A stretch of DNA of 60,532 nt, the filler included, from Platydemus manokwari (lineage: Eukaryota), in the NCBI GenBank assembly GCA_037951405.1. It is 5 parts of 5 records of this genome, joined end to end, with 100 filler letters (N's around TTAATTAATTAA, not from the genome) between each part and the next. Parts side by side here need not be neighbours in the genome. Positions count along the whole stretch, not along the records: positions 1 to 13,962 come from JBBMOY011564744.1; 4 more parts are not named here. One strand, written 5' to 3'. The notes under the pieces were generated by a model. That model was not told the DNA's origin, did not search any database, and was given only the letters and a program-made list of their open reading frames with translations. Positions 3,001 to 60,532 of this stretch are shown in pieces (the first letter of the stretch is position 1; every line of letters starts with the position of its first letter). The position numbers were made by a program, and so were the translations under genes.

Positions 3001-6000
3001 TCGATAATAATATGTCAAAGCACTTAGAATATTATGGCTATTTTCCTTATCCTGGATCCATCGAGTAGCTTCGTCTGGTTTTAGCAGTCATATTTTCGAA
3101 CATTAAGGATCTTTTGTGCGACTTAGGCAACAATAACATTTTGTGGTATTGGCTTCTGGCAACATTGACTGGGTTTTGCAAATTATTTATCATTTTCAGT
3201 AGGCTTAATCTTAATTTGTTTATTTACATGAATATTTTTTACATAAAGGATTTTGCAACGAGATGTCCACTATTATACTTAAGTTATAATAATTTTTCTT
3301 TTATCTAGTGTATTGTTGGTGGTTTATTTAAAAATCCCATTGTTATATTGATTATATAAAGTATATTTATTGTGTTATCGATATAAATCTCATTCATTCT
3401 AATATTCATTACCAAACTACGACATACAAGATATATAAATCTATCATAATTGTTGTGTGTTGGGTAGGTCACAAAAAAAACCAAAATATTTACGAAAACC
3501 ACAGAAATAAAGGATTGATAAACACAAGCGCCGTGTCAATAGCCAATAAGATTCTTCCCAAATCAATTTATATTTAGAATTCAATAATCGACTGGCTCAT
3601 ACCAACAACTGTCAAGAAACGTTGAGATTCGTCAATGGTAAAAGTATTGTATTAGAAATTAATAAGAGAACGACTTGTGAGTCTAACGAATGAAAAGTGA
3701 AACTCTGAAACATCAAATGAAGGCACACGATGAGCCTATAAAAGGAATTCAATTTCACGAGCATCTGCCAATCTTTTAGATCGGTAACTCTTATCATGTG
3801 TTACTTTTAGGTGATTTTTCAAAATACCAGTTTTTTAGTTACCCCCTGTTTTGTCGATTAACTTTTTTGTTGATTTAGTATGATTTTAATCGTATCTGAT
3901 CAACAAATCGAGGTTTGTAATTTATTGTGATTTAAATTACAACTTTTACTATTCAGAGTTAATTAATATACTAACATAAAAGAATTTAAAAAGAACACTC
4001 ATTAATTTTGATAATTACTTATTTTAAAATCATAATGTTTAATATGTTCCATTTTTCTTTGTATTTACTTATTTTTTGGAGAATTCAAGATTTCGTGCTT
4101 TTATTGACTAGAAAGACTCAAAAATAATAAAAAACAAAACAACATTAATTAAAATTAATTTGGACTATATTTTTTACATTTTCTTGTTATAAATACACTA
4201 ATGAAGGATTCTCAAAAAATATATATACCTATAAAATTTTGTAATATACTCAGATACTTTAATAGAGAAGGCTAAAATTAATTGAAATAGAAGTTAAATA
4301 ATGACAATAACTAACACATAAAATAGAAGTGTGTCCTTGATTATGAAAGTGGTATAAGTCATATATTTCTTGTTTGGAGATATTAAGGGATTTGAATTTT
4401 AAAGAATTAAAAAATATTTGTGTATTATGGAATGAAATATTTTGACAATTAATTAGCGCCGGTAAATCAGTATTTAATATGATTGTGAAATTTATTACCA
4501 TTTTTAAATGGAAATTTGGTTTTGAAAGGTTGAAATGACTTATACCACTCAAGGGCTCAAGTATAATTAGAAATTTTAAATACCAAAATTATGCACAAAA
4601 ACTGACTTTAATTTTAAACTGAAATCAATCCAAACATTCCAACAATACAAATTGAGCGCTACAAGGACATAATCCAAATCAACTTTTACTAGGAATGTAC
4701 TTCGATTATTAAATCGAAATCAAATTTCAATTATATTTGAAAATCGATCCTCTATTATATAACTTTATATTATTCAAGGGAATAATTTTAAGTACTAAAT
4801 CAAATGATCGTATTTTAAAAATTCTATTTACTTATTTTTAAAGAATGATAATTTGAATTTATTATTTTTAACCAATTTAAAAAAAATTAACATTTTTGAT
4901 CAATTTTTATTAGAAATTAAATATTTTTAATTTAAATTAAAATGAATTTGAAAATTGAATTTGAAATTACATATCTTTTATATTATACAAAAATTAAATC
5001 AAATTACCTGACTGGATGATTCAATGAAATTTATAACATACAATTTGTTTTACAGAATTATTTGGTGGGTGATATCTCAATAAATATAAAAATAATAGAA
5101 ATTAAAGAATAAATCTGAATATTGATTTCATAATCGAGAAAACACAATTAAATATTTAATTTGTTTTTTTCCTTTAGACGTGTATAATACAAAGTTCGTT
5201 ATACAATTCTAAGCATAAATAAGTATGATAATAATAAGTAAGAGTATTGTAAAATTTATGCTGATGAAAGTAGAAAACTATTAAGTTAATAGAAAGTATA
5301 TAAATTATTTATACGAAATATTCCTAATATGATGTAATTTATAATATGGTGACATTTTCCGAGAAAATTTTAAGCTGAAGTATGAATAGAAATTTATTAT
5401 TTATTATGGAAATATTGTCGATTAAACTATTATTCTGTCTCATAACTTATTCTCTGTATCTGCTAAAGGAAATCGATAAATCAGAAAGTAAAAAATGTGA
5501 AAATGAAAACTAAATTTACAAACGAAAATTCAACGGAAACTTCTTGACTTTATCAAAATTTCAATTGGATTATTGAAAATATTTAAAAATTTTAACATTT
5601 TTTATAGAAACCTAAATTACATAACGTAAAAAATTAAGTTATATGTACGGTATTTCTCTTTGGTAATTACATTTATATTCAAAACTATAATCTAAGAAAA
5701 GTTAACTTTCTAAGTTCAAGATCAAATTATTATTCTGTCTACTGGAAATAATTTTTAAAAATGAATTAATTAATGGTATTAAAAAAGTTTTTCTTCTATA
5801 TTTCACTTTTGATAATACAATTCTTCCCAATGAACCTCGGAATTTTATATTACAATGAACATAATAGTTTATTTTGTGAAGATAACACTGGAATTTCAAC
5901 GACGATTCTATCAACATTTGTGTATTTTTTCGGACATTCTTGCTATCTTATTAATAGAATTCATCGTAGACTACCATTGTTAATTGACCAATTTCGATAT

Positions 6001-6614
6001 TTATAATATATTTGATTTTAACTTCCTCAATTGCAAGGTCAATTTAAAAAAATTGGTTAGATTGATCTATAGAATTTTTAATTCGCTATTAATATCGTTG
6101 GCTAATTTTTTCAAACTACCACCCTTTTCGTCCAATACTTTCAGAAAGCAAACATCTAATGTCCATTTTTGACATATTTTAGCTGTAATTCTCGAAAAAT
6201 GTTTTATCACATAAAATTTAAATAATTAATCAAAACGTAATTAGAAGGATTACAATCGACAAAAATTTAGAACATTTGATAAATAAAGTCTAAAATAGAA
6301 GTTGAATTGCTAGATGAAAATTAATAACATAAATTAAACCACGATAATTCATTGTAGATCCAAATAATAATAATACAGCTAATATATATTATTTATATCA
6401 TGGTGCACACAAAATATAGATGTTCAAGTGAGAGAATCAAACTACAGTTTTGTATAAAAAGTCATTTAAAATCTGTAAATCAAACCAAAATCCATAAAAA
6501 ACAACTGACCAGATCTAATAACATAAAATCATTAAAAAAAAAGACAAAATTATATTAATCGAATATTTTCAAATGCAAAAACTCAAAACATAAAAACAAA
6601 CTAAAAACATCAAA

Positions 6615-7954
6615 TCAATAACGGTAATGATCTGGTTTGAATGGGCCATCCATTGGAATATTCAAATAATCGGCTTGATCTGACAGAATTCTCGTTAATT
6701 TCATACCCAAATGTTCCAGATGAGTTAGAGCCACCTCCTCATCTAATTTCTTAGGTAAGAAATACACACCAACTTTATATTGATCAGTCTTTGTCCACAA
6801 TTCAATTTGTGCAAGAACTTGATTCGTGAATGAATTGCTCATCACAAAACTTGGATGTCCATGAGCACATCCTAAATTCACAAGTCGACCTTCGGCTAAC
6901 AATATTATATGTCGACCATTCTTCAACTTATAACGATCAACTTGAGGTTTGATGGTATCCTTTGATTGACAATTCTCATTCAACCATTTCGTTTCAACTT
7001 CAATATCGAAATGTCCAATATTACAAACAATTGAATCATCGAGCATTTGTTCAAAATGTCGACCAACAATTACATCTTTACAACCACTTGCTGTTACAAA
7101 CAATCTCGCTTTCTTTACTGCCTCCTCAACGGTTGTCACTTCATAACCTTCCATTGCTGCTTGCAATGCATTTATCGGATCAATTTCCGATACAAGTACA
7201 CGACAACCAAATGCTCTTAAAGCTTGACAACAACCTTTTCCAACATCTCCATAACCAGCAACTAAAGCGACTTTTCCTGCTAACATTACATCAGTCGCTC
7301 TTTTGATACCATCGACGAGAGATTCGCGACATCCATACAAATTGTCGAATTTGCTTTTTGTTACGGAATCGTTGACATTGATAGCAGGACATTTTAACTT
7401 TCCATTGGCCATCATTTTATACAGATTATGCACTCCAGTTGTTGTTTCTTCAGAGATGCCTTTAATCGATTTCAGTAAATGTGGATATTTTTCATGGACA
7501 AGATTTGTTAGATCTCCACCATCATCGAGAATCATGTTTAATGGTTGTCCATCGGGGAATATTAATGTTTGTTCCATACACCACAAGTACTCTTCATCTG
7601 TTTCACCTTTCCATGCATATACAGGAACACCAGTTTTAGCAATAGCTGCTGCTGCATGATCTTGAGTACTAAAAATATTACAAGATGACCACTGAACTTG
7701 TGCACCCAGTGCAGTCAAAGTTTCAATTAGAACTGCAGTTTGTACAGTCATGTGTAGACATCCAGCTATTCTTGCACCAGCTAAAGGCTGTTTTGCCCCG
7801 TATACATGCCTCATCATCATAAGACCAGGCATTTCATTTTCTGCTATAATAATTGTTTTACGACCCCATTCAGACAATCCAATATCAGCTGAAAATAATT
7901 TAAGTAAAATTATTGATACTTTTACATACCAACTTTATAAAGCAGTTTATACAT
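6615..7954 (-). CDS. AHCY: S-adenosylhomocysteine hydrolase (adenosylhomocysteinase), 2 exons: 7930..7954 and 6615..7888, 432 aa
   Basis: Motifs [66 protein letters not shown] and C-terminal [10 protein letters not shown]. Micro-exon ATG TAT AAA CTG CTT TAT AAA GTT G|gtatgt joins ttttcag|CT GAT ATT GGA across a 41-nt intron to give [19 protein letters not shown]. Confidence 0.97.
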
Positions 7955-9180
7955 AATAATTTTATCTAAATTTCATGTTAACATTAACATTTGTATAACT
8001 ATTTGAAATTATTTTATAAATAATTAATTAAACAAAATCAAAAATATTGCAAAAACTTAATTGAAATATAATATTTTATAAATAAATAAAAAAACGGTAA
8101 TGTATAAATATTCAATTTACTTCAATAAATCTTTAAATTGAAATATTTTAATAAATTTTTCATTTGAATAATTATGATTTTATTTGATAATATATAATAT
8201 TTAAGTCTACATTAGCAAGAGCTACTTTGAGAGATGTCAGAATCTGAACCGACAAAGAGATTTGTTGGACATTTACAGATTGTTTGAGAGTGAGAAACCT
8301 TTTTAATTGCATTATCCTGATCATTATTTTACACCATTAACTAATTTAATAATTTTTTTTATTAATAATAATATTAGTCCCCTCCATTTGGTTTTTTTAA
8401 ATCATTCGCTTGGATATTTGCATAACTTCCCAGTTATTTGCTGTTTTTTTGTATCTTGTTCAATTTCTACATTTCTTAAACAAATCATATTAATACAAAT
8501 CATCATTTTTTATTTGTCTCTACTCAGATAAAATAAAAGCATTATTATTTATTAATAATGCCTTATGTTCGATACCAAGCAAATTTACTGCAGTGAGACC
8601 AATAATCCTAGCTTCAACAATTAATTTACATAGCCTCAAAACCTTTAGGCATTTCAGTTAAGTTTTCCAATAACTTCGTTCTTATATGAGTTTGAACTGA
8701 ACTCCTTTAGAACCAGTGAGAGCAATCATGAAACATTGTAGTGTTTCTTCTTTGCTTACTTTTTACCCTATGTTGTATATCATGGATTTCCAAAGTCGGC
8801 GGTACCGCCTCATAGTGGGCTTTGCAAGGATCCAGAGAGTCGGTGGTGAATACAAGCTCACTTTGGGGCGATAATACTATAAGAATGTAAGAAAATGATT
8901 ATTAAAAATTTTGATATATCTCGTATGTTCAAAACGCTTAATTTGTCTTTAAATACAGCAGAATCCCCACAATTGCTTAAATCTGATAAATGTCAGTTAG
9001 CTGTTTGTCTAGTAAAGTTTTTTGGCGCTTTGTTCTGTTTCTCCGACTGCTTTTATACTAATTTTCGTTATCTCTGTGCCCAATCATAAATTTTCTAATT
9101 TTGGAATTCTAAAATCCTATTTTTATTTTCTGATCTATTATTGGAATTAATAAATTATATTCTTAGATTCTAATCTATTT

Positions 9181-9501
9181 CTTTCCTGTGTTCCGTCTGG
9201 TTTGGCATACCTTGCAGACTGTACACCATTCGTGTATGTCTTTTTTCATATTTAGCCAATAGTATTTTTGTCAGATACGGCTCATGGTTTTCCTGGCGGG
9301 CAGGTTTCCACCTAAAGTTCCGTCGTGATACTGTAGAAGTACTATATTTCGTAGAACTTGGGGTAAGACGATGAGATTATTGCTATCGGTTTGATACTTC
9401 ACGATATCGGCTTGGATAAGAAATCTTCCTTGTTCTCCTTTGATTTGTTTGAGTTTTTTGTCTAAGACGTAAGGTCTACTCGTTTTGTAATTTCTGACCA
9501 T
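9181..9501 (-). pseudogene. Integrase N-terminal zinc-binding (HHCC-type) region, truncated before the DDE core
   Basis: LIVLPQVLRNIVLLQYHDGTLGGNLPARKTMSRI*QKYYWLNMKKDIHEWCTVCKVCQTRR, with an in-frame stop and the second His replaced by Asn. Confidence 0.85.
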
Positions 9502-10295
9502 TGTTCTGTTTTGTATTCTATTGTTTTTACAATTTGCATAATGTCATCATCCTCTTTTTGCAATGCTGCTATATCATATTGGTTGCTTAATGTTTGGTTA
9601 GCAGTGAGTATAATTTCGGCAGTGACTTCATATTCTGTAGTGTCGGTTCGGGATAATACGTCAGCATTTCCGTTGGCTTTGCCTTTTCTATAGCACAGCT
9701 TGATATTGTATTGTCGTAGCTTTAAAGCCCATCTGATGAGTCTTGAGGCTGTGCCTCTGTGTTGCAACAACCATTGTAAAGGTTTGTGATCTGTGGTTTC
9801 GACTCGTGGTGGGATTTCTCCGGTTTCTCCTACATAAATTTCTGCATCGCCTCGTCTTTTCTGTTTGGCGATGGAAATTAATTTCCCTGTGCTGCAATCG
9901 TACACATTATCTTTCAATTGTTTTATTGCATCTTGTCCAACTACGAAATGAGATAGTGCCCCTGTTGATACTCTGGCTTCGACTGTTAACATCTGATTGC
10001 AGATGTGTAACCTACATGGTAGTATTTCTAATAAAGGCAGTTTTGTTCCATTGATTCCAACTATAAGCAGCTGATTTTCATCTTTAATGAGGTTTTGCAT
10101 TTCTATGTGGTTTAGTATTTCCGACCTGATGATAGTGACATCAGCTCCTGTATCTATGAGTGCCATTACAGAGTGGCGGTTAAGTTTTATCTGCATGAGT
10201 CCATTTCTGCCTGTGCTGGCTACGTGGACGTAATCTACCAATCCTCGCTGGTTTTGTCCTTTGATCCTTATGTCATCTTCCTGGTTGTCGATCAT
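9462..10295 (-). pseudogene. Retropepsin protease fused in frame to the RNase H C-terminus (RT deleted)
   Basis: MALIDTGADVTII...FVVGQDAI (protease), then directly TDHKPLQWLL...RLIRWALKLRQYNIKLCYRKGKANGNADVLSR (Ty3/gypsy RNase H end). Confidence 0.88.
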
Positions 10296-10599
10296 TGCCT
10301 ATAGCTCCGTTGTAGGATAAGTTTTCCGTTTGTCATTTCGAGATTTCCCTACAGGTTCCTTGAATTCTTGTTCATTTGAGTCTCCTTGTCTGATCGGTAT
10401 GTCTTGCTCGACTTGTACTAGGCAATAAGGTGGTGCACTGACTGTTGGCTGGTGCCACTGGATGTCACCATGTGTATTTGTGTACCTTTTGGTTTAATTC
10501 TTTCTGTCCAACTTGTAAATGCGTTGGAATATTCTTCATCGCTTTCGTCATTTGTTGACCATCTTGGTTTCCGGATGGTATGTTGCTTTTCCTCCATCC

Positions 10600-12320
10600 A
10601 CGTTTTCGTTTGTTTTATTTCCCTTCGGTGTTGTGCATGTATAAAGTGGTCGGCGCCGGGTGGACATAGTGCCAATAGAATTCTTCTGGTGCATCCGAAG
10701 GCTCGGTATAATAAAAACGCTGTCATTGCTCGGTGAAAAAAGAATGTTCCAAATGTCATAAAGCTACCCCAAATTTGGTACATGAAATTAACGGCGGCTT
10801 TCATGCAATGTTCGGCGGTAACCAGGTTTTCATAGTCTGATCCTTGATCCATCCTGGTAAATTCGTCTGATTATCTCAGTAATGCCTCAATCCCTTAGTT
10901 GCGGAAACATTAACGCTCGTCTAGCATCTTCGATATCTTTTGAGTTTATCGGTCCTAAACTGACACGTCCCTCTATTTCACTTAGATTTAGTGTCTGTAC
11001 TGGTAGGCGTGGTAATCCTCTTGATAATAGTGTCATCCATGCATTCTTAATCTTGTATAGTGGTGCAAAAAGTGGTGTGCACGTTCCCTTTGTAGGCTTG
11101 GCGTTTGGCTCCAATAGTATCCTGGTAATTGAAACCCTATATCTGCTTTTCCCTTGATACATGACCTTTAATTCGTTTGTGCATTCATGTCCATGAGCCA
11201 TCATGACTTGTACCTCTGTACAGTGAAACTCGTACCAGGCTTCTCCATTTACCTTGCCATATTGTTCTTTTTCCATGATGATGGGTGTGATTAAGTTTGG
11301 ATTCGCTATGGCAATAGCTAGTCGGTTGGCAGTTGACAATTAGTGTTTCCTGGTAGATCTCGAGTAGCTGTGACTGTAAGTCATGGTAGAGGAAGTCTCC
11401 TTTATTGTTCATATAGCTGGCAAGTTTAATGTCATTTTTGTGAAGTGTTTGTGCGTTTTTTAGCTTCTCTTTGCTGTAATAGACACCTTCATAATTGGTA
11501 CTGTGATTGGTGCTTTGGTTACTAGTCGAATGACGTCGGAAGACTTGTTTGACATCAGTATTGTAGATACGGCGCGTTCCTTTCTGTCTGAGCGCTCTGC
11601 AGCTCTTTCTAATTGTTTGTCGGTTACATGGGTGCCTGTTCGTTTCTCATAGACTAGCTTGGTACCAGTTATAGCAATGAATGGTCCGCTTTTAAGTAGT
11701 ATCATTTCACAGTTCTACAATTTCCGTGTTGTAAGTAACACTTTGGGTATTGTGTCATTAATCCGGTTTTGGCATCAAATGTTGCCTCAAAAGAGTGTAG
11801 TTCCACTCGGTTATCTTCAATGGTTACTAACCAGGAGGTAGATACTCCGTCCTGAAACTTGGTTCTTCCGGTACATTCTCTATTATGAGTTATTGTTCCA
11901 CCACTGGTTATTATCTCTTGCGTAATCATGTTTGGTTCTACCGTTAAACTTAGTTCAGTGTCGATACGCAGTTTTTTGGTTACGAATCCATCTCGGTAGT
12001 CGATTGGTGCTATGTTCAATATTCGTGGGATTAGTTTAGCGTCTAGTACCACTGTTCTACTATGGTATCCGCAGTAGTACTCGAAAGTTGCTACCTCAAC
12101 TCGGCATTCTTGTACCATGGCTCGTATGAAGTCATTCTCTTGGTAGATGTAATAAGTGTCTGGTTCACTTTTCTGTAACTGGTGCGGTCGCACGGTTGGG
12201 CAATTTATAGAGTCCACTAGAGAGTAGATATTGGATATCTTTGCTTTTCCGTAATCGTAGGCTTGAAGTAGAGTGGTTTTCCCTATTAGACTCATGATTA
12301 GCAGGATTTTGAGTAGTCCT
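10600..12320 (-). pseudogene. Chuvirus-like envelope glycoprotein of element A (frameshifted)
   Basis: Hydrophobic signal LLKILLIMSLIG, then AYD(Y)G..YSLVDSINCP, ECRVEVATFEYYCGYHS, YMNNKGDFLYH, AIANPNLITPI, GEAWYEFHCTEVQV..HECTNELKVMY, ITRILL, DIEDARRALMFP and TM region WGSFMTFGTFF..FGCTRRILLALCPP. Confidence 0.75.
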
Positions 12321-12385
12321 CCTAAATCGTATCCTTGGTTGCTTGAGTGTTTTATGTTTGCTTTATGTTTATCTGGCTTTCGGTT

Positions 12386-12765
12386 TAAGGTGGTCCATCC
12401 ACCTTTGTCTTCTAACCATTGGATTAGGTATCTTTGGCACGTCTGCGATGCTTGCATAACGACATCTTTAAAATGACTCGGTTCCTGATAGGATGAGGTG
12501 ATGATCTGCTGTATCAGGTATGTGAGGGCTACTTTTACGCTCTCCAGGGTCAGTCCTTCCTGAGTTAGTTCAGCTATTATGGTACGTGGGTTGGCATCTC
12601 CCTGGTTTAGTATCTGTTTCATCTTTAGCAGGTATCTTCGGATTGAGCGTATAACCCTTTCGTGCCCGTCGGTTTCTTGGTTAGGGATTCGCGGATTATG
12701 CTGTTCTACCCCGTGTGGTAATGTTAACAAGATTGTTTGGATATCCGTCTCTCGGGTATCGTGGT
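12386..12765 (-). other. Bcl-2-fold-like domain in the element A polyprotein
   Basis: BH4-like HDTRETDIQTILLTLPHG, BH1-position AELTQEGLTLESV (NWGR absent) and BH2-like RYLIQWLEDKGGWTTL with near Bcl-2 spacing, followed by a hydrophobic tail. Confidence 0.6.
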
Positions 12766-13259
12766 TAGCGTCTGCTACTTTTCTCAGGATTTTTGCCTGG
12801 ATTTTGGCGCAAGTCTTCTCGTTTCGTTCCTCCATGAAAGGTGGTCTACCTCGTTTCCGTTTGTTGAACGCTTGTGATTCGGTTTCTAATTCGTGCATGA
12901 TTTTCGTGATAGGTTCGATCTTGTTTTAGATTTGAACCTCTACGGGGACGTTTTCTTAGAGTTCGGTGAGGCCCTTGACGATTGGTGTGTTTAAAAATGC
13001 ATCCAAGTCGACCTCGTAGTTTGGCTGGATCTCGTTTGGTGGATCCGTATTGATTGTCCGGGCCCTTCTGGTTCGGGCGGTCTCGGAAGTGTGATAGTGG
13101 CTCGTTTCCACTAGTACTGGTATTGATTTGGCTGTGGTGATGTGCCCAGGCAGGCATCCTACATTGACCAAGTATTCATCGTCATCTACAGGGTGTTCCC
13201 ATATTGCCATGACGAATGGTTCCCGTACGGGTTGTGCTTTCTTGATGACGGTTCTCAGC

Positions 13260-13511
13260 CGTTTTACTTTGCAATAAATAGATTGCTGTGTTTCCAATGC
13301 TCCGAATTCTGGAGTGTGAATCTGCATTCTGACGCAACAGTGGGCTGTGACTCATCAGATGTCCGTTTTTCTGCAGAAATAGTTGGATTTCTACTTGGTA
13401 CTCAGAAGGCTTTCTGAGTTGCGTTACTAGCATTAGTGCTACTTTGTCTATGATATCGGTTGGCACGATGACTTGAATTATGTCTCCAAGCATTTGCTTG
13501 ATCCTTGTGGT
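13260..13511 (-). other. Ubiquitin-like domain in element A
   Basis: TRIKQMLGDIIQVIVPTDIIDKVALML aligns with ubiquitin [28 protein letters not shown]. It is followed by QLFLQKNGHLMSHSPLLRQ. Confidence 0.55.
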
Positions 13512-13724
13512 GTCATTCTGTTGCAGGGTCCTTTCTAGTTCCTGTCGTAGGCGTTCTGCCTTAGTCATCTGGATTGTGACAAGGACGTTTTCAGTTGTGA
13601 TAACTGTAATTGGCTCTGAGTCACCGGCAATGTGCTCCTCTTCTGCGGTCATCACTCTGTCAGCTCCTGTGTTGGCTGGTCACGAGTGGCCTCGTTCAGC
13701 TCCGGTATTGGCTGGTAACGAGTG

Positions 13725-13897
13725 AGTAGTATGTTATGTCAGTGTTTGGCGCCACCTCCCTCAAATTCTCAATTTACAAAACTATCAATTTTTCTAATCT
13801 AGTATACCCCATTGACCCCCCAACTCGCATATTTTGCAATCCATCAGTCTATCAAACTATCAAACTATCAGGCCAAACACTGACATAACATACTACT
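13725..13897. mobile_element. 173-bp MITE-like element with perfect 26-bp terminal inverted repeats
   Basis: agtagtatgttatgtcagtgtttggc (13725-13750) is the exact reverse complement of gccaaacactgacataacatactact (13872-13897). No clear target-site duplication. Confidence 0.75.
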
Positions 13898-13962
13898 ATA
13901 AACTCCTATTTTTCGGCGATTGGAAAACATAATAATAATTTAAAATCCTAATATAAAAAGTG

Positions 13963-14062
13963 NNNNNNNNNNNNNNNNNNNNNNNNNNNNNNNNNNNNNN
14001 NNNNNNTTAATTAATTAANNNNNNNNNNNNNNNNNNNNNNNNNNNNNNNNNNNNNNNNNNNN
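13963..14062. other. Artificial contig spacer
   Basis: 100 nt of N with central TTAATTAATTAA (stops in all six frames). Confidence 0.97.
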
Positions 14063-23288: not shown

Positions 23289-23388
23289 NNNNNNNNNNNN
23301 NNNNNNNNNNNNNNNNNNNNNNNNNNNNNNNNTTAATTAATTAANNNNNNNNNNNNNNNNNNNNNNNNNNNNNNNNNNNNNNNNNNNN
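23289..23388. other. Artificial contig spacer
   Basis: N run with TTAATTAATTAA. Confidence 0.97.
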
Positions 23389-24453: not shown

Positions 24454-25339
24454 TGTGGAATCCGACCTTACTTTACACATTAAACTATGATACAATCATA
24501 AATATATATAAAAATAAAAAGAATATTAAAAACATAAAAAAAATTAATTTTAAAAATTCTTAGATTAGATAGAAAAAATAAAATGAATAAAATTCAAAAA
24601 TTTTCATATTAAATTATTTAAAAATAAATAGAACAAAAATTTTATTTTTATAACAAATTCTTTGTTTAAATGATCTCAAGGTCACCCCGGTATAACCCAA
24701 GGTCAAAAGCAAGAAATTATTTCAAAATCTATTTTTAGTAACCACGTCAGTACTAAAAGTAGTGTAGGTCAATTTAGCATCTCAAGTAGCTAAAAATAGT
24801 AGGCTGTTGCTAAATTTAGACATGACTTCTAGAGAGCTCCTAAATTTAAAAACAAAAGAAGACTAAAAATTAACACACCAATATGACGCATGAGACCCAC
24901 AAAATCAGCATATAATAGGAAGCAAATTCAGTTTGATTGCAATTTATCATATGCGATTAATTCAGTTATTTTTCAAAATTTTAACGCATGATTCAAATTT
25001 GATTATTCCGACGACAAGCGAAACCTTTTTATCGAAGAAAAATTCAGACGAATCAATTACTGTTTATCAATTATTGAAGAAGAATTCAAACTCATCCATT
25101 TTATCTATAAATTGAAAAAGCATTCGAAAGACTCAGTTTATTTTCCACTATTATTTTGAAGAAGCATACAGCGAATCATTTTAATTTTCTTTCGAATTCC
25201 GAATCCGTCTATTTTAATTTGCAACAATCATGAGTAAAATTTTGTTTTTATTATGCTCCCATAACTATCTCAATAGCTGTGTGGTTGTTCTAAATTTACT
25301 AGGTTCTACTTATTATCTCCCACCTTTATTTTAACCACA
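24454..25339 (+). repeat. LTR-like repeat beginning TGTGGAATCCGACC (second copy starts at 60399)
   Basis: The first ~130 nt resemble 60399-60532. TGTGG...CCACA inverted termini are a candidate; no TSD, so the right boundary is uncertain. Confidence 0.5.
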
Positions 25340-36446: not shown

Positions 36447-36546
36447 NNNNNNNNNNNNNNNNNNNNNNNNNNNNNNNNNNNNNNNNNNNNTTAATTAATT
36501 AANNNNNNNNNNNNNNNNNNNNNNNNNNNNNNNNNNNNNNNNNNNN
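36447..36546. other. Artificial contig spacer
   Basis: N run with TTAATTAATTAA. Confidence 0.97.
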
Positions 36547-50461: not shown

Positions 50462-50561
50462 NNNNNNNNNNNNNNNNNNNNNNNNNNNNNNNNNNNNNNN
50501 NNNNNTTAATTAATTAANNNNNNNNNNNNNNNNNNNNNNNNNNNNNNNNNNNNNNNNNNNN
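50462..50561. other. Artificial contig spacer
   Basis: N run with TTAATTAATTAA. Confidence 0.97.
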
Positions 50562-51784: not shown

Positions 51785-52711
51785 TTAAAATTGAAAATCA
51801 TCTGTCATTTCTATCCTGTTTTGTATGACTTCCGTCGTCCCTACGTCATATTCATGTTTTGCCATAATATCGTCATATTTGTCTATTATCTCTTGTAATC
51901 TCTGATTTTCTTTCTCGGTTAAATTTTCTTCTGCTATTTTGATCTTTGGATAATGTTTTATTTCTCCCAATACTGCAAATTGGTTGCTATTAATTACTTT
52001 AGCTTTTACACATCTTCCTAATACCATTCCTGATCGCAATATTTTGATATTGTTCCCATAATTGGTAACTCTTAATGGATAATATCCATTCTGTGCTGTA
52101 GCTAAAACCGAACTCATCTGAATCTCATCATCTATCTGTCGTGGTTCAAACATTAATGTTTCATTCGTGGCTTCCACCGCAATCATCAATACGCTTCCAC
52201 ATCTTGCTGGTAGCCGAACTATCTCTTGTATTCTTAGCTTATCGTCTTTATGCTGGGGTGCTTGTTTATATGATATTTGTAACGTTGTTAAATCCAGGAC
52301 TACTCCTGTTAACTGTCCCAACAAATCCATTAATATTAGTATGTCGTTTAATCCTTCTGTTACCACCTTAAATTCGTGATCTATTTGTATGTTTCCGAAC
52401 GCTATATTTATCTTCACTTTCCCAGCTGTTTCAATCCTTTTCTCTCCTGCTCTTACGAGAACATCTTTATCTCTACTTATCTTTGTTTGTTCATATTCAT
52501 TGAGTAATTCCTTTCTAATCATTGATGCCTCTGCGTCTGTGTCTATTAAGGCTCTTGCCGGCCTATTGTTCATCAATACTGTTACTATGAGCCTACGTCC
52601 CTTACCTGTTGCTGAATGTATGGTGTATACTTGTTTTACATTGCTGATTAATGGATCTCTTATTTCACTCATCATCTGTTTTTCTATCGCGTATGGGTAG
52701 TACTCATTCAT
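51785..52711 (-). pseudogene. Retropepsin protease and pre-RT linker of element B
   Basis: RALIDTDAEASMI (DTG changed to DTD), DILILMDLL, then LQEIIDKYDDIMAKHEYDVGTTEVIQNRIEMTDD, the typical lead-in to gypsy RT, where the element is cut off. Confidence 0.85.
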
Positions 52712-52902: not shown

Positions 52903-54830
52903 TCATCGACCACATTCCTCCTCCTCTAGCCTGTTTGGTATCTGCTTTATCTGCTCCATCTCACTCTTATGATGTGTTAGCATCATAAGCTTAGCTATTG
53001 GCGGACATATGCAACATAGTATTTTCCATAAACATCCAAAAATTTCTTGTAGCGTTTTCCCCGTAATTAGTGATGAAAATACCATTTTTATTATTACCAC
53101 TATATAATATATTCCCAGAAAGAAGGAAAATATTGTTCCTATTTCCTGGAATCTTCCATATAAACTCTTAAATAGTTATTTTACTGCTTGATTGAAATGA
53201 TCCACCGATAACAAGGCTTCATAATTTAAGGTCTCGTCTGGGCTTCCTCCTAATATTCGTTGTATCATATTCATGATTACTTTTTCTCGTTATATTGGGA
53301 ACAGCATATATTTTCGTGCTTTCTCTATGTTTTCTGCTGCATAAATTCCACTTTCATTCATGTCGTTAAATGGTTGAAATTCTATGTTCCCTGTTACTCC
53401 TGAGCTTTTTAGAATTAATATGTCCGCTCTTGATTTCTTATTCTCCGTCGACACCCATCTTCCATAATCTGTTTTAAATACTGGATCCATAACGTTTGAA
53501 CACGCGTCTATTCTCGCGACCTTGTAATGATTCTTGTTACTAATTATAAAAATACTCTCTTGTTGTTGTATATGATTGGTATCTCGTTGGTGCAGTATTC
53601 ATGTTTTCTGATCACTAAGTTGTTTACCATTTTACATTAGAAAGTATAAATGACTTCTCCCACTACTCTAGCAAATGTACCTTTATCGTCAAATATTAAT
53701 GGGGCTATCAATTCTGGATTTTTTACCGTCAATGCCATCTTTGTTTGTAGCACCTTACGCCTTAGCTTACAATCATTTAACATTATTTCTATGTACATTT
53801 TCTCTAGGTACCCCTGATTAAGGTGGTAAAAGTAATCAAGCTTGTTGATAAAATACTGAGATAACTTAATATCCAATTGATCTACCTCTGTCTTAGCATC
53901 TTTTATTTTGTTCTTACTCAGATATATTCCTTTATAGTTCGTCACTATAACTTACTGTGCACATTCCTTTGTGCACAAACCTCATGGCACTGCTTGTTTG
54001 ATCCGCCATGTATACTATTGGTGGTTCTTTCATTCTGATTTCTACCGTTTCCGTTGGTGTGTCTAGATTTAATTCCTTGGAAAATTTTGTTTCCTTAAAT
54101 ATTTTTCCTTTTATTTCTCTAAATTCCGTTTTTTTGAGCAATGTCAGTGGACTCTTATACGGATTGCTCTTGTACATTATTAGTGATTCCCCCGTATCAC
54201 ATGTTGAATTATCGTATTCGCAATGTGTCCATGTGGTCATTTTCCTTGTTTTTCCATCAAAAGTGGTTTGATATTCTCGCAATTCTATAATATAGTGCCT
54301 GTATGTCATTACATGTTTTACTACCTTTCCATCTATCATGCAATTTCCTCCTTCGGAATATGCCCCATTACTAGACCAACCTGCTTGATTTACTGTGTAC
54401 CTGTTTATTCGTACTGGTGACACCACTACTTGTATTCCTTTTGGTGTTTGGTAAATTCCCTTCTCAAATGCAGCTTTATAACTTTCCACTGACGGTATTT
54501 CTGGTACTAGTAACCATGCCAGCACCAGTGTTACTGTGTATCATATTCTCTTATATGAACAATGAAAAGCACTTAATGATATACAATCTTACATTCCTTT
54601 GCTTTTTCAAACAGAAACTCAGATTCCTAATATACATACATTTCCTTTGGTCTTGACTGTATAATATTTACTGGATATGCCTCTGGGCATTGTTCAATAT
54701 CCAATAGTGAATATTTCTTTCCCCATCGTGGTTTGCCGCAGTCATATCCACTTATTCCGGCATTCGCGCCCCCTATACTGCTTATTACGTATATTGCGAA
54801 TAACGTCTGGACTATTGTTGCCAGTGTAGA
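52903..54830 (-). pseudogene. Chuvirus-like envelope glycoprotein of element B (frameshifted)
   Basis: Signal TLATIVQTLFAIYVISSIGGANAG, then GYDCGKPRWGKKYSLLDIEQCP, HCEYDNSTCDTG, YFINKLDYFYH, NDCKLRRKVLQTKMALTVKNPELIAPLI, ARVVGEVIYTF, GIYAAENIEKARKYMLFP and TM YGRFQEIGTIFSFFLGIYYIVVIIK..FGCLWKILCCICPP. Confidence 0.8.
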
Positions 54831-55694
54831 CCCTGCTCCCCGTACTAGTTTTTCGCGCTCTGGCTTTTTCACTCCCTTTAATAACGTAGTAACCACTGTA
54901 GTCCATCCTCCTAATTCATTTACCATGTCTTCGTATTCATCGTATATTATTTCTGCTCCTTGATCAATACTTACCTTTGTCTTTGGTCTCTGCATTAGTT
55001 TATTGTGCCGTATGTGTTTGTTGACTTTCGTTCAATAATTCTTGATCAAAAATATTGGAATAGCTCTTCATGATTATCATATCTTTAATGATTTTCCTCT
55101 CCCAGCACTTCTGGCAACTCCTCCGTTCGTAATTCTTCTCCTGGTGGCTTTGATACATTTTTTTCCTCATCACTTATTTCTTCTAATGATGTCATCCTCT
55201 TCTTCTATTGCCTTACTACATTCTCCTTCCTTATACGGATACACTATCTTCTTCCTCAACACCCTTTCCTGTTCTTTACTGGTATTGTTTTCTAATTCCA
55301 GTGCCTCTTTTCGTTCCTCTTGTATTTGTTTTATTACATTTTCTCGCGGTTCCCCTTTCTCTGTTGTATTTTCCTTATTTGGGCATTTATGTTTTTGCTT
55401 CTCTATACATCCTAAACATAAGTATCTTTTCTCTATCTCCTTTTGGAGCTGACTTTTCGGCATTCTTTCCATAATGTCCAATGAACTATCTCTTCCTTTC
55501 GTTCTTAATTCCAGCGCCTTTAGGAAATCTTCGCAGGAATTCAATTCACTTGATTTGGAATTTGACGACTTATAGCTAGGTGATTTTTCTTCATTAGCTT
55601 TTGTTGCTGCGGTGACTTCTTCTTCATCCAAATCTACTCCTATTATTTGATTGGCATTTATATATAGTTCCCTTATTTCTTTTTCGACCGGTTC

Positions 55695-58473
55695 TTTATA
55701 CTTGATTAGGACTCCTAAATTATTTAAAATTGTACGATTCAAATGATACTGTTCTAGCAGATACCTGCTTCTCAGTCTTATCCCCTTATTGTAAATCGTG
55801 ATACTTAGTTTATTGACATGTTCTCTCATTAAAAATTTTTGTCTATTATATTCCTTCATTGTTTTCACTACCACGTCTCCTGGCCAACTCATTATGTGAT
55901 CTTTCTCTTCTGTCCACGGGCTTTCCCATATTCGTAATTTGAATGGGTAGCAATTATAATCCATTCTACCTCTGTGTCTTAAGTAGACATAATTTACTCT
56001 TCTTTCTGATAACTTGTAGTCCTTTAATTGACTCCCTTCCACAAATAACTCTTCACTATTCGTTCTCTTTGAATGATGATACGTGAGATATCCATTTTCA
56101 TTCCTATCTGGCCATAGCTCATCTGCCCAATTTAATATAAATCGGATTTCTGCCTTTTCTAACTTTTCAGTTTTTCCACATGTGGCTGTCCATGCTGTCT
56201 TGGCACCAAATGCAAATCTATTATTCGTTGATTATTTATTGTTGCAGGTAACTTTTCCTATTTTACATCATGTGTGAATGGTAACTCTGGAATGGTTGTC
56301 CTGTGAAATGTCAAAGATCTCCATTTAAAGAATGTTCTGGATTTTCGGGGCTTCCATGTTGATCCTTCCCCTTGATGGATCATGACCTCTACAACATTTC
56401 GTCTTCTTCTTTTTATTAAATAATGCCTGCATGTTTTATCATCTTCCATAAACATCCCGTGGTGTATTAATTCCACTAGGAATGGTTTGAATGTCGCGAA
56501 CGGCCACATTGCTGTTGCCATTTGTCGAAACCTTCGTATACTTTCTACTTCGCTTACCATTACCACTCTTATTTGGTGCTGTTGCAGTATACTGGTCATC
56601 ATCATTACTGCTTCAGCCAATTCATCCTTATTCTGTTCATTTGTATTACTATCTGTTGGGGCCTGGGTTGTTGTTGCTTTTTCTGTTGCCATTCTGCTGA
56701 TTCCTGTTCTCCTCCTGGTTGCTCATCTTCACTACTGTCTCCGTCTGAGCCTTCTTTATTTATCATATTAATTTGTAAAATTATCTTGGCCTCCTCTGTT
56801 ATTATATCGATGGCTAAACATCAATTTCCCTGGTCTTTCTTTATGTATTCTCCTATACATTTCCACTCTGTCATACCTTTGTCCTTGAAACTCATTTTCA
56901 CCTTTCCTTTTATTTTTTTCCAACTCCTCCGGCCAATCCAATATTATCAACTTCCTAATCAGTTGGACTGATGTAGACATATTTAATTCCATGTCTTGTT
57001 GCACTTGCTTTCCTTCACTATCCTGTATTATTAATATAAATTTCCTCTTAATCCCGTTATATTTATTGGTGTCTCCTTGAGGGAATTCTCTTTCCCTTTC
57101 CTTCAGTTGTCCCCTTTAGGCCTGTCTCCACAAATCAAATTGTTTTCCTTGCTCGTACCGTATTATTAATTTATTAAATTCATATATAATTTCCTCTGTC
57201 ATATTTATCCTTTATAACTTCTCCCGTATTCTATACGCTTATCTTTCCACACAATAAGGGTTTGTGAAGTATTTTCTCTCCTTAAGCTGTGGATATTTGA
57301 ATGCTATTACCTCTTGACTCATTTCGATTGCATCCGTTCTTGCTACTCCATTTTTACTAACTTTTCTTCTATTTTGTCGAGTCTGTCCATCCATATGGAA
57401 TCTGGCCTCATCTAAAATTCATGACATTGCCGTCTCTTTTTCCATGCTTGATTTATTTTTATGTCTTTCCGTCTTAATACCGTTCGCATCTTTCTTGTGT
57501 CCCTACCGTGATTCTCTCTTCTCCGAATATTGATATTATTGCTTGAATCCGTTCCATTTCATCTCTTGCATCTGGTTTCCTGATACAACTCATCATATTT
57601 ACTTCCTTCGTCTCCTTTTTTTGTTTCTTCCGCCATTCTCTTTTTTTATAATAATATGCACTATAATGCGCAATTATGGTTAACTCATTATGCGTTTTTT
57701 GCGTCATCCCTAAATCACTTAATATCACCTCTTCTTAGACTGGTGTTCCCTTATGCCATGCTTCCACTCAGCATTCAGGATCTTCCTCATTTGGCCAAAA
57801 ACCAAACGTCCATTGCAATATTTCGCTTATGCTTGAATCTTCATCTACCGTAAGTGATTTTATTGTTGCTCTCCCTTTATTATTTCACTGTTAGCTTTCT
57901 TTCTTCGTGCACCAATTTTTCACAATGACTTCATGGGTATAATTTTACAATCCCGTTTTCTATTATTCCATTTGGATATCTCTTCGGGTTTTTCATTACC
58001 ACTATTTTGTTTATCTGTCCACGTCATCCTTGCATGAACATCATTATTTCATCTAAACCCAGTACCCATTCATCCGTCCATCCTGTATACTTATATTTCC
58101 ATCTCCTCTCCATTAACAATTCCAATTTTGGTACCGTCTCTTTTCCTTTAGTAGTTATCCACTCACAATGACTATCCTCCTCTTCACTAACCATTTGGAA
58201 TTCTATTATCACTTTTCCTTCTGATTTTCTTAGATTCTCTCTTCCTCTTTCTATATCATCAAAAGCTGTTCCTCCTCTAACTGTAACTTTTATCTGTCCC
58301 CTATGTCCATACACCGGTTGTGTTTTTATCTTTATTTGCTCAGCTTCCCATAACACCGGACATCGTTTAGCTATGTCTCTGTATATTTTATTCATTGAAT
58401 CATTCAAATTTATTTCTACATAAATTTGTTTCTTAACTCCATATCTATCTTTAACCAGGATTGCCAATTCATA
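55695..58473 (-). other. Array of up to five ubiquitin-fold domains (about 58190-58473, 57665-57900, 56770-57050, 55975-56225, 55695-55946)
   Basis: Each unit shows strand-strand-helix plus, in four, a ubiquitin-like G-x2-L-x5-L-x2-Y/L end: HKGTPV*EEVILSDLGM, FKDKGMTEWKCIGEY, FVEGSQLKDYKL..VYLRHRG and NKGIRLRSRYLLEQYHL. A helix-terminal WP/CP occurs in four units. Confidence 0.55.
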
Positions 58474-60398
58474 TTCTCCTTCTTCTGCATTCTTTCTGGG
58501 TTTTTCTTTAGCATCCATTTTATCATATATCCCTTTACTCTCTAATATTTTCATCAATAGCTGTTCCGCCCGTGCCTCTTTTTCTAAATAATTTGTTTCC
58601 GCTGTATTTCCCCATTCTGGATGCATTTCTTCCTCGTGCTATCAGCAATCTTTTACATGTTCCTACTATCCCTAGTCTTTCTTCCTCCTCATTTATTTCT
58701 GATGTCGTTTCTTCCCTTATTATTTTACTTTTTGTTGCTGTTAGCTGAATCAGTAAATATCCTGCCTTCTTTCCAAATTTTTTAACTCCTTCTATTATTT
58801 GCTGGAATTCAAGGGCATTACTTTTCTCGAAAAATGGCATTCCTATCCTCAGCTTCTGTTCATGTGTTAACAGTCGTTTTAATCTTATTATTACGCTTGG
58901 CGGTTCATTTTCCACTATTCTCCATACCTGAGGATCGAAAGTTCCTTCTCTATTTTCTCTAATTCTCTTTTCACTTGGTGCTTCATTTATTAATTCTCTA
59001 AATATGTCTATCAACGTTTGCACATTAATGTGGTCCATATTCTCCTGTGTTAGCTTCATCCACAATCCATCTTTATCTTCTTGTGGCAACTGCTTCCATA
59101 TGTTATCCATTTTTTCATCGATATCTCCATATCCCTTTCCACATCCTCGTAGTCTTTCTACAAACTCGTCCATAACCTGATAGTCAATTTCTCTATTGAC
59201 TAGATATTGTCCCAGATATCCAGCTTCCTTATTAGTTGTAGAATGTCCTTCCATTGTTACCAATTTTGACGGGACATATATTGGTGACGTTGCTGGCACA
59301 TTTAATACTTTTGGCAGTATTCTTTCAATTACTGGTATTGGTAAAGCTGGTTTTACTGGAATATTTCCTAACAGTACTGCCACTGCTGCTTTGTATTTCC
59401 TTCTTCGTATTACTGGGTCATTTTGAGCATATTTCTCCCCCTTTTTATTTCACCATCTTCCTCACACTTATTTCGTGGCCTTTTAGTTGACAATTCCTTA
59501 TTTCCTATGCACCATTCTACTGGCCTTCCTGTCTCTTCTGTGACATCTATTACTTGGAGATTTTGTTTCTCTTCCCAAATATCATTGATTTCATCTGGTG
59601 AACTAACTTCCTCCATTTCTGATTCTGATTCTATTTCGGATTTTATGCTATTTTCGTCCGCTGTTGCCTTATTTGACACTTCTTCCCCATGCTCTTCTTT
59701 TTTCATCAACTGCTCTTCTGTCTCCACCAGCGTGAATTCTTCCTTATTTTTGTTAACATTCTCCCAAAATTGCTTATTCGATGGTATTCCCGTTATTTGA
59801 CTTAATGTGCAATTCATAAATCTCTGACAAAGTGTTTTCACATTAATTTTATCCCTATCTCTTGTATTATATGTATTATATTTTTCTATTTCCATATATT
59901 TCTCCCATATATTTGTTACAATATTCACACTGGATTCTTCCGTTGCTATTCACCCTGTCTCTCTCATAATTACTTTATTTTGTTTGATTATTGTCATAAC
60001 TTCTCCTATTGGATCCCTCTGCTGACTGACTTCTGGGTCTATTACCCCTTTGCATTTCATTATTATAATAATTATTGTAATTGGCTCTATAGTTCCTCCA
60101 TTGGCTATCAACATTTCGACTGTTAAATTGTGCATAATAATTATTATTTTTATTCCAACGGTAATTGCGATTATTTGCTGGGCTCCTGCTTCTATAATCA
60201 TCATTATTCCTATCTGGAACTCCATTTCTATCACCATTATACTTATTGTCACTATATCTTTGGTCATTTCGCCTATAATTATTATTGTTATATCATCGGT
60301 ATCCATCATCATTGTATCTTCGATCACTTTGTCGATAATTACTATAATTATTATTCCTATTATTGTCCTGATTCCGCGCGCACTCATTATTAACATTC

Positions 60399-60532
60399 TG
60401 TGGAATCCGACCCTACCCGAAACACTAAAACATAAAATACAGATAAATATATATGAGAATAAAAAGAATTTTAAAAATATAAAAAATTTAAATTTAAAAA
60501 ATTTTTACTTTCAACAGAAAAATAAAAATAAA
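60399..60532 (+). repeat. Start of the TGTGGAATCCGACC LTR-like repeat, interrupting element B
   Basis: Similar to 24454 onward. Element B coding sequence stops abruptly here. Confidence 0.6.

Follow-up and report, generated by a model that had tools for sequence, protein, structure and literature searches.

Burro/GYPSM1 elements are planarian LTR retrotransposons of gypsy-like type and giant size (Jurka 2007 and Grohme et al. 2018, both as cited in PMC6431247) and, according to the passages of PMC6431247 dealing with their layout, they encode Gag, Ubl (Ubi2/SUMO-like), BCL2, Env, PR, RT, RH and IN in this order, env being located in frame between gag and pol. The same passages describe a length of >30 kb, BIR, ankyrin and MATH domains, multiple CCHC knuckles and a dUTPase-like domain between PR and RT, match the Burro env to mononegavirus fusion glycoproteins, report decaying fragments in Dugesia japonica and name as worth testing whether the BCL2-like domain works (PMC6431247). 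In the text available of PMC13238120 and PMC11410931 Burro is merely mentioned, and from PMC8532177 the whole word Burro is absent.

Chuvirus-like, gB-type env genes located beside gypsy pol have also been reported in many phyla, 114 arthropod elements included, with a GAG-ENV-POL order in Nematoda, Bryozoa and Platyhelminthes; the C1a group of Platyhelminthes, composed of HSV/gB-type errantiviruses, contains Smed_errantivirus_1-6, which are intact multi-copy elements, the median identity within this planarian Smed group being 33.5% (PMC13524379, in the parts covered). Cargo domains are not treated there, as judged from the 0 occurrences of “Bcl” in the main text and seven supplements and the 0 occurrences of “ubiquitin” in the supplements. 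According to the passages covered of PMC10084718, arthropods provided no clear case of capture by gypsy, and chuviral inserts are often flanked by fragments of LTR elements.

We describe here two retroelement remnants, A (~13700-9170) and B (~60390-51800), which are in all likelihood decayed and truncated Burro-like Ty3/gypsy copies of the GAG-ENV-POL type.

Two remnants and their setting

The window, i.e., the whole stretch of DNA analysed (60,532 nucleotides, filler included), is made up of five contigs separated by linker gaps (13963-14062, 23289-23388, 36447-36546 and 50462-50561). It consists of AT-rich animal DNA with a GC content of 27% outside A and B, the latter being two minus-strand islands of higher GC (43% and 36%, respectively) that represent retroelement remains; since they lie on separate contigs, their proximity in the window may not be real. 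The host genes recognised by Pfam are SAHH, the second subunit of RNA polymerase, CC2D1, a GPCR and a piece of Snf7, whereas no tRNA was found when looked for in the window. The RNA polymerase gene (20856-17262) and CC2D1 (29515-27125), both on the minus strand, are divergent and almost devoid of introns. CC2D1 is 26-41% identical to its homologues in named animals, and its search returned 70 matches with no named flatworm and no named close relative among them; in a quick tree of this one gene, carried by a contig separate from those of A and B, it is placed outside the clade of arthropods (SH-aLRT 97) and separately from two sampled nematodes, on a long branch shared with one unnamed sequence. 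The non-arthropod host suggested in the earlier note agrees with this placement.

Three further features were observed in the window: a third, more decayed gypsy integrase fragment at 38662-38002 (minus strand); a 198-aa ORF at 50378-49782 (minus strand) having no Pfam match and, by eye, a presumable likeness to a Polinton or adintovirus minor capsid protein; and an AT-rich repeat common to 60399-60532, at the 5′ end of the visible part of B, and 24454-24587 (77% over 134 nt).

For comparison, 50 relatives were obtained from a search of 1.84 billion representatives and three loci (L001, L002 and L003) from a metagenome scan (3/214); in viral contigs no relative was found with P0004, and alignment A3 gave 0 of 81 stretches.

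Table 1. Positions, along the window, of the parts of elements A and B and of one host gene
Feature	Positions	Strand	Basis or remark
Helical segment of A, ahead of Ubl; most 5′ recognisable part of A	13182..13679	-	tblastn to relative P0006
Ubiquitin-like domain (Ubl) of A, weak support	13112..13339	-	49% to P0006 aa 499-539
Bcl-2-like domain of A, in frame with env; BH1-BH2-like core 12589-12395	12347..12760	-	Pfam, profiles
Hydrophobic helix, env signal sequence of A	12269..12325	-	hydropathy
Env glycoprotein of A, chuvirus-like class III	10589..12259	-	PF24664; L001 env; six-frame reading
Retroviral-type aspartic protease of A	9798..10217	-	PF13975 E 9e-08, PF00077 E 1.6e-06; matches L001 aa 1840-1976
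C-terminal end of Ty3/gypsy RNase H of A	9501..9794	-	PF17917; 38% to L001 aa 2477-2583
Integrase zinc-binding domain of A	9178..9405	-	PF17921 E 1.9e-16, 60.4 bits; 49% to L001 aa 2603-2678
Decayed frames of B ahead of env, ~5.4 kb	55000..60390	-	ORFs
BH2-like remnant (54989-54885) and env signal helix (54824-54768) of B	54768..54989	-	alignment with A
Second, divergent glycoprotein copy, of B, with stops and frameshifts	52903..54746	-	PF24664 on three pieces; L001 env E 6.5e-85
Protease and following pol segment of B	51797..52600	-	PF13975 E 1.6e-06; L001 aa 1842-2110, E 5e-17
SAHH	7934-6615		same contig as element A

Gag and RT are missing from element A, together with the core of the integrase and much of the anchor of env. 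Its helical segment has no Pfam match; tblastn aligns 13502-13338 with aa 419-473 of P0006 at a joint E of 2.6e-09 with the ubiquitin-like piece. A TFIIS-N-like reading of 13679-13182, made by eye, was dropped, Pfam having given it no support. The ubiquitin-like domain aligns with its counterparts in L001 and L002; its profile reaches ISG15 at E 0.0099 (most, not all, of the 35 matches being Ubl chains), the L002 counterpart reaches PF00240 at E 0.0047, which is below cut-off, and ESM Atlas returned no usable match for this part of A. Between the ubiquitin-like and the Bcl-2-like domains lies an RGRP (12853-12842, minus strand), which we take to be an AT-hook-like motif, and similar motifs are likewise placed in P0005, P0006 and L002.

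The env frame of A begins 222 residues before the mature protein, in a 407-aa ORF (12925-11702) whose sole hydropathy peak is at residues 201-219 and in which the PF24664 match begins at residue 207. The six-frame reading divides this env into five frame pieces, with frame changes near 11710, 11500, 11325 and 10850, and the C-terminal anchor is shortened, ORF 10870-10418 having no hydropathy peak, as against values of 2.33 in B and 2.41 in L001. The protease is fused in frame to the end of RNase H, so that ~500 codons including RT are gone (L001 aa 1977-2476 are unmatched), and no rve match indicative of the integrase catalytic core was obtained in three frames of 8400-9502. In both A and B env is located upstream of the protease and not after pol, the mature glycoprotein of A extending over ~12259-10589.

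Neither A nor B, both of which are truncated, is surrounded by a detectable LTR pair. At the 5′ edge of A a perfect 26-bp inverted repeat encloses ~120 bp (13725-13897; depth ~2100 in the bin 13743-14000), and is probably a small high-copy foldback element separating A from its gag. At the 3′ break, in the expected place of the integrase core, there is a very high-copy repeat (8670-9203) with no Pfam match and with a depth of 11,000-12,500 vs 13-34 in the flank.

In B, the frames ahead of env contain an Arg/Asn-rich gag-like tail at 60292-59975, so labelled by eye from its likeness to P0009 and P0015, and, at 57115-56258, pieces with a weak likeness to ubiquitin, single ORFs matching ubiquitin at E 0.049 and Rad60-SLD_2 at E 0.091; the three whole frames of this upstream region match no Pfam family at E 0.05. 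These ~5 kb of cargo frames possibly hold more than one ubiquitin-like unit (58638-58024 and 57115-56258, minus strand), as indicated by weak Pfam matches and, for one of them, by eye. B aligns with A from the GGW motif onward (E 1.2e-18, jointly with env); the profile score of its Bcl-2-like remnant is 7.6 bits, within the shuffle range. The env is broken throughout by stops and frameshifts and pol ends at 51797, before RT, which in L001 begins at aa 2155; no dUTPase-like domain was recognised by Pfam in 52300-51797, a region aligning with the same part of L001.

The glycoprotein and the pol to which it is joined

The earlier note had listed motifs shared in part by two glycoproteins, and most of these stand. 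Indeed, in the six frames of the window NK.D..YH (11406 and 53846), NP.LI.P (11303 and 53720) and IE.AR...[ML]FP (10934 and 53328) occur twice each, once per element and on the minus strand, as does GE..Y.F.C..V (11246 and 53660), which in B is interrupted by a stop. YDC..YSL.D...CP is exact in B (54746) and off by one residue in A (12259), whereas C.V......CG (12106 in A) is unspecific, since its loosened pattern matched 11 other places.

The class assignment of the glycoprotein as class III and chuvirus-like, put forward in the same note, has gained support. PF24664 (Monjiviricetes_fusion) matches three of six ORF pieces in the glycoprotein region of A (E 1.3e-13, 8.6e-15 and 0.039) and three of five pieces of B (E 4.4e-13, 1.1e-05 and 6.2e-14), and the env of A is 29-35% identical to the intact env of L001 (E 3e-24 and 5e-37). 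The structure prediction that had been recommended was made on this relative, so that the class III fold is read from the env of L001: its model (pLDDT 73) finds in the PDB, by Foldseek, a list of matches every one of which is a herpesvirus gB, the best being HSV-1 gB (E 4e-12, TM 0.34, rmsd 14, 9% identity). The top viral match is the glycoprotein of Tacheng tick virus 4 (E 3e-35, 23% identity), presumably a chuvirus-family glycoprotein, and the top viral fold matches are mostly chuvirus-like glycoproteins, with 14-23% identity in the top 15 rows. An errantivirus/baculovirus F-type env is not the best match in either search, these being PF24664 in Pfam and gB with chuvirus-like glycoproteins among the folds; the env profile gave no match when compared with PDB sequences.

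Piece by piece, the envs of A and B are 24-44% identical, which indicates two old subfamilies rather than recent copies of one another. A tree was made from 41 env segments, after 12 of the 53 rows of relatives had been dropped for covering <100 residues, and with neither Anakin nor named chuvirus rows included. In it A and B both fall within a 36-row clade of retroelement-type envs, to which the planarian-errantivirus-like row P0016 also belongs; this clade is set apart from five insect or stand-alone glycoproteins by a long branch with support 100/99 under a midpoint root.

As to pol, the RNase H motifs occur once in the window (9794-9648, element A), where the remnant matches PF17917 at E 7e-05 over 29 residues (23.4 bits, under the cut-off of 24.8), and what remains of A follows the order PR, end of RH, zinc domain of IN, with RT deleted. 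RT is found in neither window copy; the full order PR-RT-RH-IN is present in L001 and L003, and all six relatives with RT carry PF17917, PF17921 and rve. The Pao-type families, which we take to be PF05380, PF18701 and PF03564, matched none of 29 window ORFs (E 1), 30 frames or ORFs (E 0.05), 28 relatives (E 0.05) and 5 locus ORFs (E 0.1). Together with the 60.4-bit match to PF17921 these results support the attribution of the pol remnants to a Ty3/gypsy-type rather than a BEL/Pao element, as had been proposed from the RNase H motifs, insofar as the type can be read from domain matches.

The relatives indicate how such a glycoprotein is embedded when the frames are open. Of the 33 relative proteins or ORFs scanned, 10 carry env in frame with PR or pol, and in L003, P0006 and P0019 env lies between gag and pol in a single frame. 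L001 is a 3426-aa open frame leading from a Ubl-like start through a Bcl-2-like domain and an env flanked by two hydropathy peaks to a full pol ending with IN; L002 has Gag-CCHC-Ubl-Bcl-2-like upstream of env, and in L003 a single frame of 2693 aa extends from Gag to IN, the Bcl-2-like part being absent. The polyprotein of L001 (2-10282) contains three protease-like domains, as well as extra hydrophobic segments, located within pol and beyond IN; behind it comes an ORF (10617-12107) with an RNase T-type exonuclease match (E 1.4e-05). In P0006 as many as four protease-like domains are present. The env-pol polyprotein of a retroelement, P0010 (HBK71150.1), is deposited under a Flavobacteriaceae metagenome bin and is likely animal DNA in a bacterial bin.

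The Bcl-2-like domain

The leader of A, taken alone, matches Bcl-2 of Pfam at E 0.043, and all 28 of its matches among PDB sequences are Bcl-2 or Bcl-2/Bcl-xL chimeras, at E 0.54-2.5. A BH2-like motif stands ahead of env in six relatives, one of them P0038, and the profile made of A and these six, which were chosen for that very motif, reaches Bcl-xL at E 6e-05; the profile of A, L001 and L002, the latter two having been retrieved solely by their env, matches Bcl-2 at E 2e-04. In both profile matches BH1-BH2 is colinear with Bcl-2 proteins. A relatives-only profile scores 46.8 bits on A, 63 on L001 and 79 on L002, the best of 20 shuffles being 10.1.

It is nevertheless quite conceivable, though not the reading that we adopt, that the resemblance is mistaken or a relic and that this stretch is just a helical part of the polyprotein, a matrix or spacer, having no role in cell death. 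The BH1 signature NWGR is indeed absent in all nine aligned sequences. The AlphaFold model of the domain is poor (pLDDT 61, pTM 0.37), and with it Foldseek, which also uses sequence, listed chains all belonging to the Bcl-2 family at E 0.17 or worse, while the 50 best rows of VIA-align for the same low-confidence model (best Z 6.8) included no Bcl-2 chain. Furthermore, nine relatives with long N-terminal regions do not match the profile, from which it follows that the domain is dispensable. On the other hand, two profiles reach Bcl-2 proteins, one of them built with rows found independently of the motif through env, the BH2-like GGW/QGW is retained across rows only 15-23% identical to A, and in Burro a BCL2-like motif is placed at the same position by the HHpred-based analysis in the portion consulted of PMC6431247. 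Other searches were uninformative: ESM Atlas gave no usable match for the Bcl-2-like part (best 0.78), a word-index search with the 407-aa ORF as query, directed at longer proteins, gave 0 of 3144 candidates, and the search with profile A1 returned two matches, both of them rows of that profile.

Within the env clade some branches retain the Bcl-2-like cargo (L001, L002, P0001, P0004, P0005, P0015, P0025 and P0038 being the relatives concerned) and others lack it; on the env tree the label requires two changes, B being on a long branch.

The distance between the BH2-like motif and the start of the mature env is 53-87 residues in all seven sequences in which both were located. Bcl-2 proteins carry a tail anchor at about the position of the signal helix, so that this helix, close behind the BH2-like motif, may double as a tail anchor. 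In its full form this proposal would have the Bcl-2-like domain function as a regulator of cell death or membranes acquired by capture, the env signal helix stay with it as its tail anchor after cleavage by signal peptidase, and the module extend beyond dugesiid planarians; in this form it is unlikely. Were the shared anchor real, each Env made would yield one membrane-bound viral-type Bcl-2. In L002 a stop separates the Bcl-2-like domain from the signal helix, which would either argue against the shared anchor or mark a damaged copy. No statement of a shared anchor was found in the texts searched.

Nature of the elements and comparison with known systems

If A and B are truncated Burro-like copies, the intact relatives suggest what has been lost, that is a single frame encoding Gag, a helical plus Ubl module, the Bcl-2-like domain, an internal signal helix, a gB-like fusogen with a C-terminal anchor, PR, RT, RNase H and IN. 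Given that hydrophobic helices flank Env on both sides, such a polyprotein would most likely pass the ER membrane twice: Gag-Ubl-BCL2 would remain cytosolic, the signal helix would put Env into the lumen, where signal peptidase would cut the helix, and Pol would be returned to the cytosolic side by the Env anchor. In this way the fusogen and the components of the particle would be synthesised jointly and held at a single membrane, the element protease releasing the rest, and the presumable role of Env would be cell-to-cell spread.

The window copies are inactive, as A is without gag, RT and integrase core and both envs are broken. That the family might still be intact and active in this genome, the breaks of A being in part assembly artefacts of a collapsed multi-copy repeat, is a doubtful alternative. 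Contig depth is 111-304 over A vs 13-34 in the flank 6000-8669 and hints at several copies, although it comes from the one matching sequencing run listed, with none of RNA among the matches, and this run is probably of the source sample, so that the depth is no copy number; these copies differ by substitutions and small indels, a 289-nt contig continues with unlike letters at the PR-RNase H junction, and the window itself consists of contigs joined by four linker gaps. However, in A the frame changes four times, the anchor is shortened, ~500 codons are lost in frame and both gag and the integrase core are absent, and B is likewise broken throughout; moreover, 696 of the 1292 contigs on 6000-14000, those of high-copy repeats being counted in, are just 90-95% alike, which fits aged copies.

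Very improbable, compared with the reading of A and B as Burro-like elements, is the possibility that in this host lineage a gypsy element took up a chuviral glycoprotein in a separate event not yet reported. Such an event could be invoked because the best viral fold matches are chuvirus-like glycoproteins and because no clear capture by gypsy was found for arthropods in the passages covered of PMC10084718, but the identity to viral glycoproteins is as low as 14-23% in the top 15 rows, A and B lie inside the 36-row env clade together with P0016 and apart from the five insect or stand-alone glycoproteins (100/99, midpoint root), and both the layout and this env group appear in the published portions consulted of PMC13524379 and PMC6431247. 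A stand-alone chuviral endogenous element neighbouring an unrelated gypsy fragment by chance, or else a BEL/Pao (Anakin-like) element, can practically be dismissed: env and protease do not share a single open frame in A or B and LTR-element fragments often flank chuviral inserts (PMC10084718, as far as covered), but the window shows the same env-PR order and spacing twice, 10 of 33 relatives have it within a single frame, and no Pao-type Pfam family was found in any window ORF or relative scanned.

The earlier note had supposed an independent and old env capture. As an unreported capture it finds no support, for both the pairing of gypsy with a chuvirus-like env and the Ubl-BCL2-Env-Pol layout are already known, the former from PMC13524379 and the order Ubl-BCL2-Env-PR from PMC6431247, in the parts of these papers that were covered. 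With both of these published and with inactive copies in the window, the significance of A and B is, as it stands, small; they add one more host genome to those with Burro-like elements. The significance would be greater if the host were not a planarian or if the Bcl-2-like domain works, and the latter question could be addressed on compact relatives such as L001, which are smaller than the 30-kb Burro.

When A and B are set against Burro, the likeness lies in the order Ubl (weakly supported in A), BCL2-like, Env, PR, (RT), RH, IN, seen in A and its relatives, the single frame being found in the relatives only. The BCL2-like domain directly ahead of env is seen in A at sequence level, B having merely the BH2-like remnant, and the env-then-PR order is present in both, with broken frames and, in A, without gag. 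The difference is that the window copies are truncated and broken, and they are likened to Burro by layout; no BIR, ankyrin, MATH or CCHC match was given by Pfam in the window, where the 5′ part is missing in A and decayed in B. With Smed_errantivirus_1-6, A and B have in common a gypsy pol and a gB-like env upstream of it, and, by eye, the env of A shares 60 of 139 residues (~43%, ungapped) with Smed_errantivirus_4, which exceeds the median of 33.5% within the Smed group. This likeness to a planarian element may point to a flatworm host.

Non-canonical nematode endogenous retroviruses in which an RNA-virus glycoprotein is carried by a metavirus, env standing before pol, have reportedly been described by Sacco et al. 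in 2022 (J Gen Virol 103:1739); the position of env is alike, whereas the host CC2D1 of the window is apart from the two sampled nematodes. Anakin, reportedly a group of mosquito BEL/Pao elements that carry a glycoprotein of chuviral type (Dezordi et al., 2020), has a glycoprotein of the same broad chuvirus-like class, but here pol is of gypsy type and the host, by one gene, non-arthropod. Finally, the chuvirus-like glycoproteins and herpesvirus gB have the class III fold in common with the env of L001, whereas here the glycoprotein is an internal part of a retroelement polyprotein.
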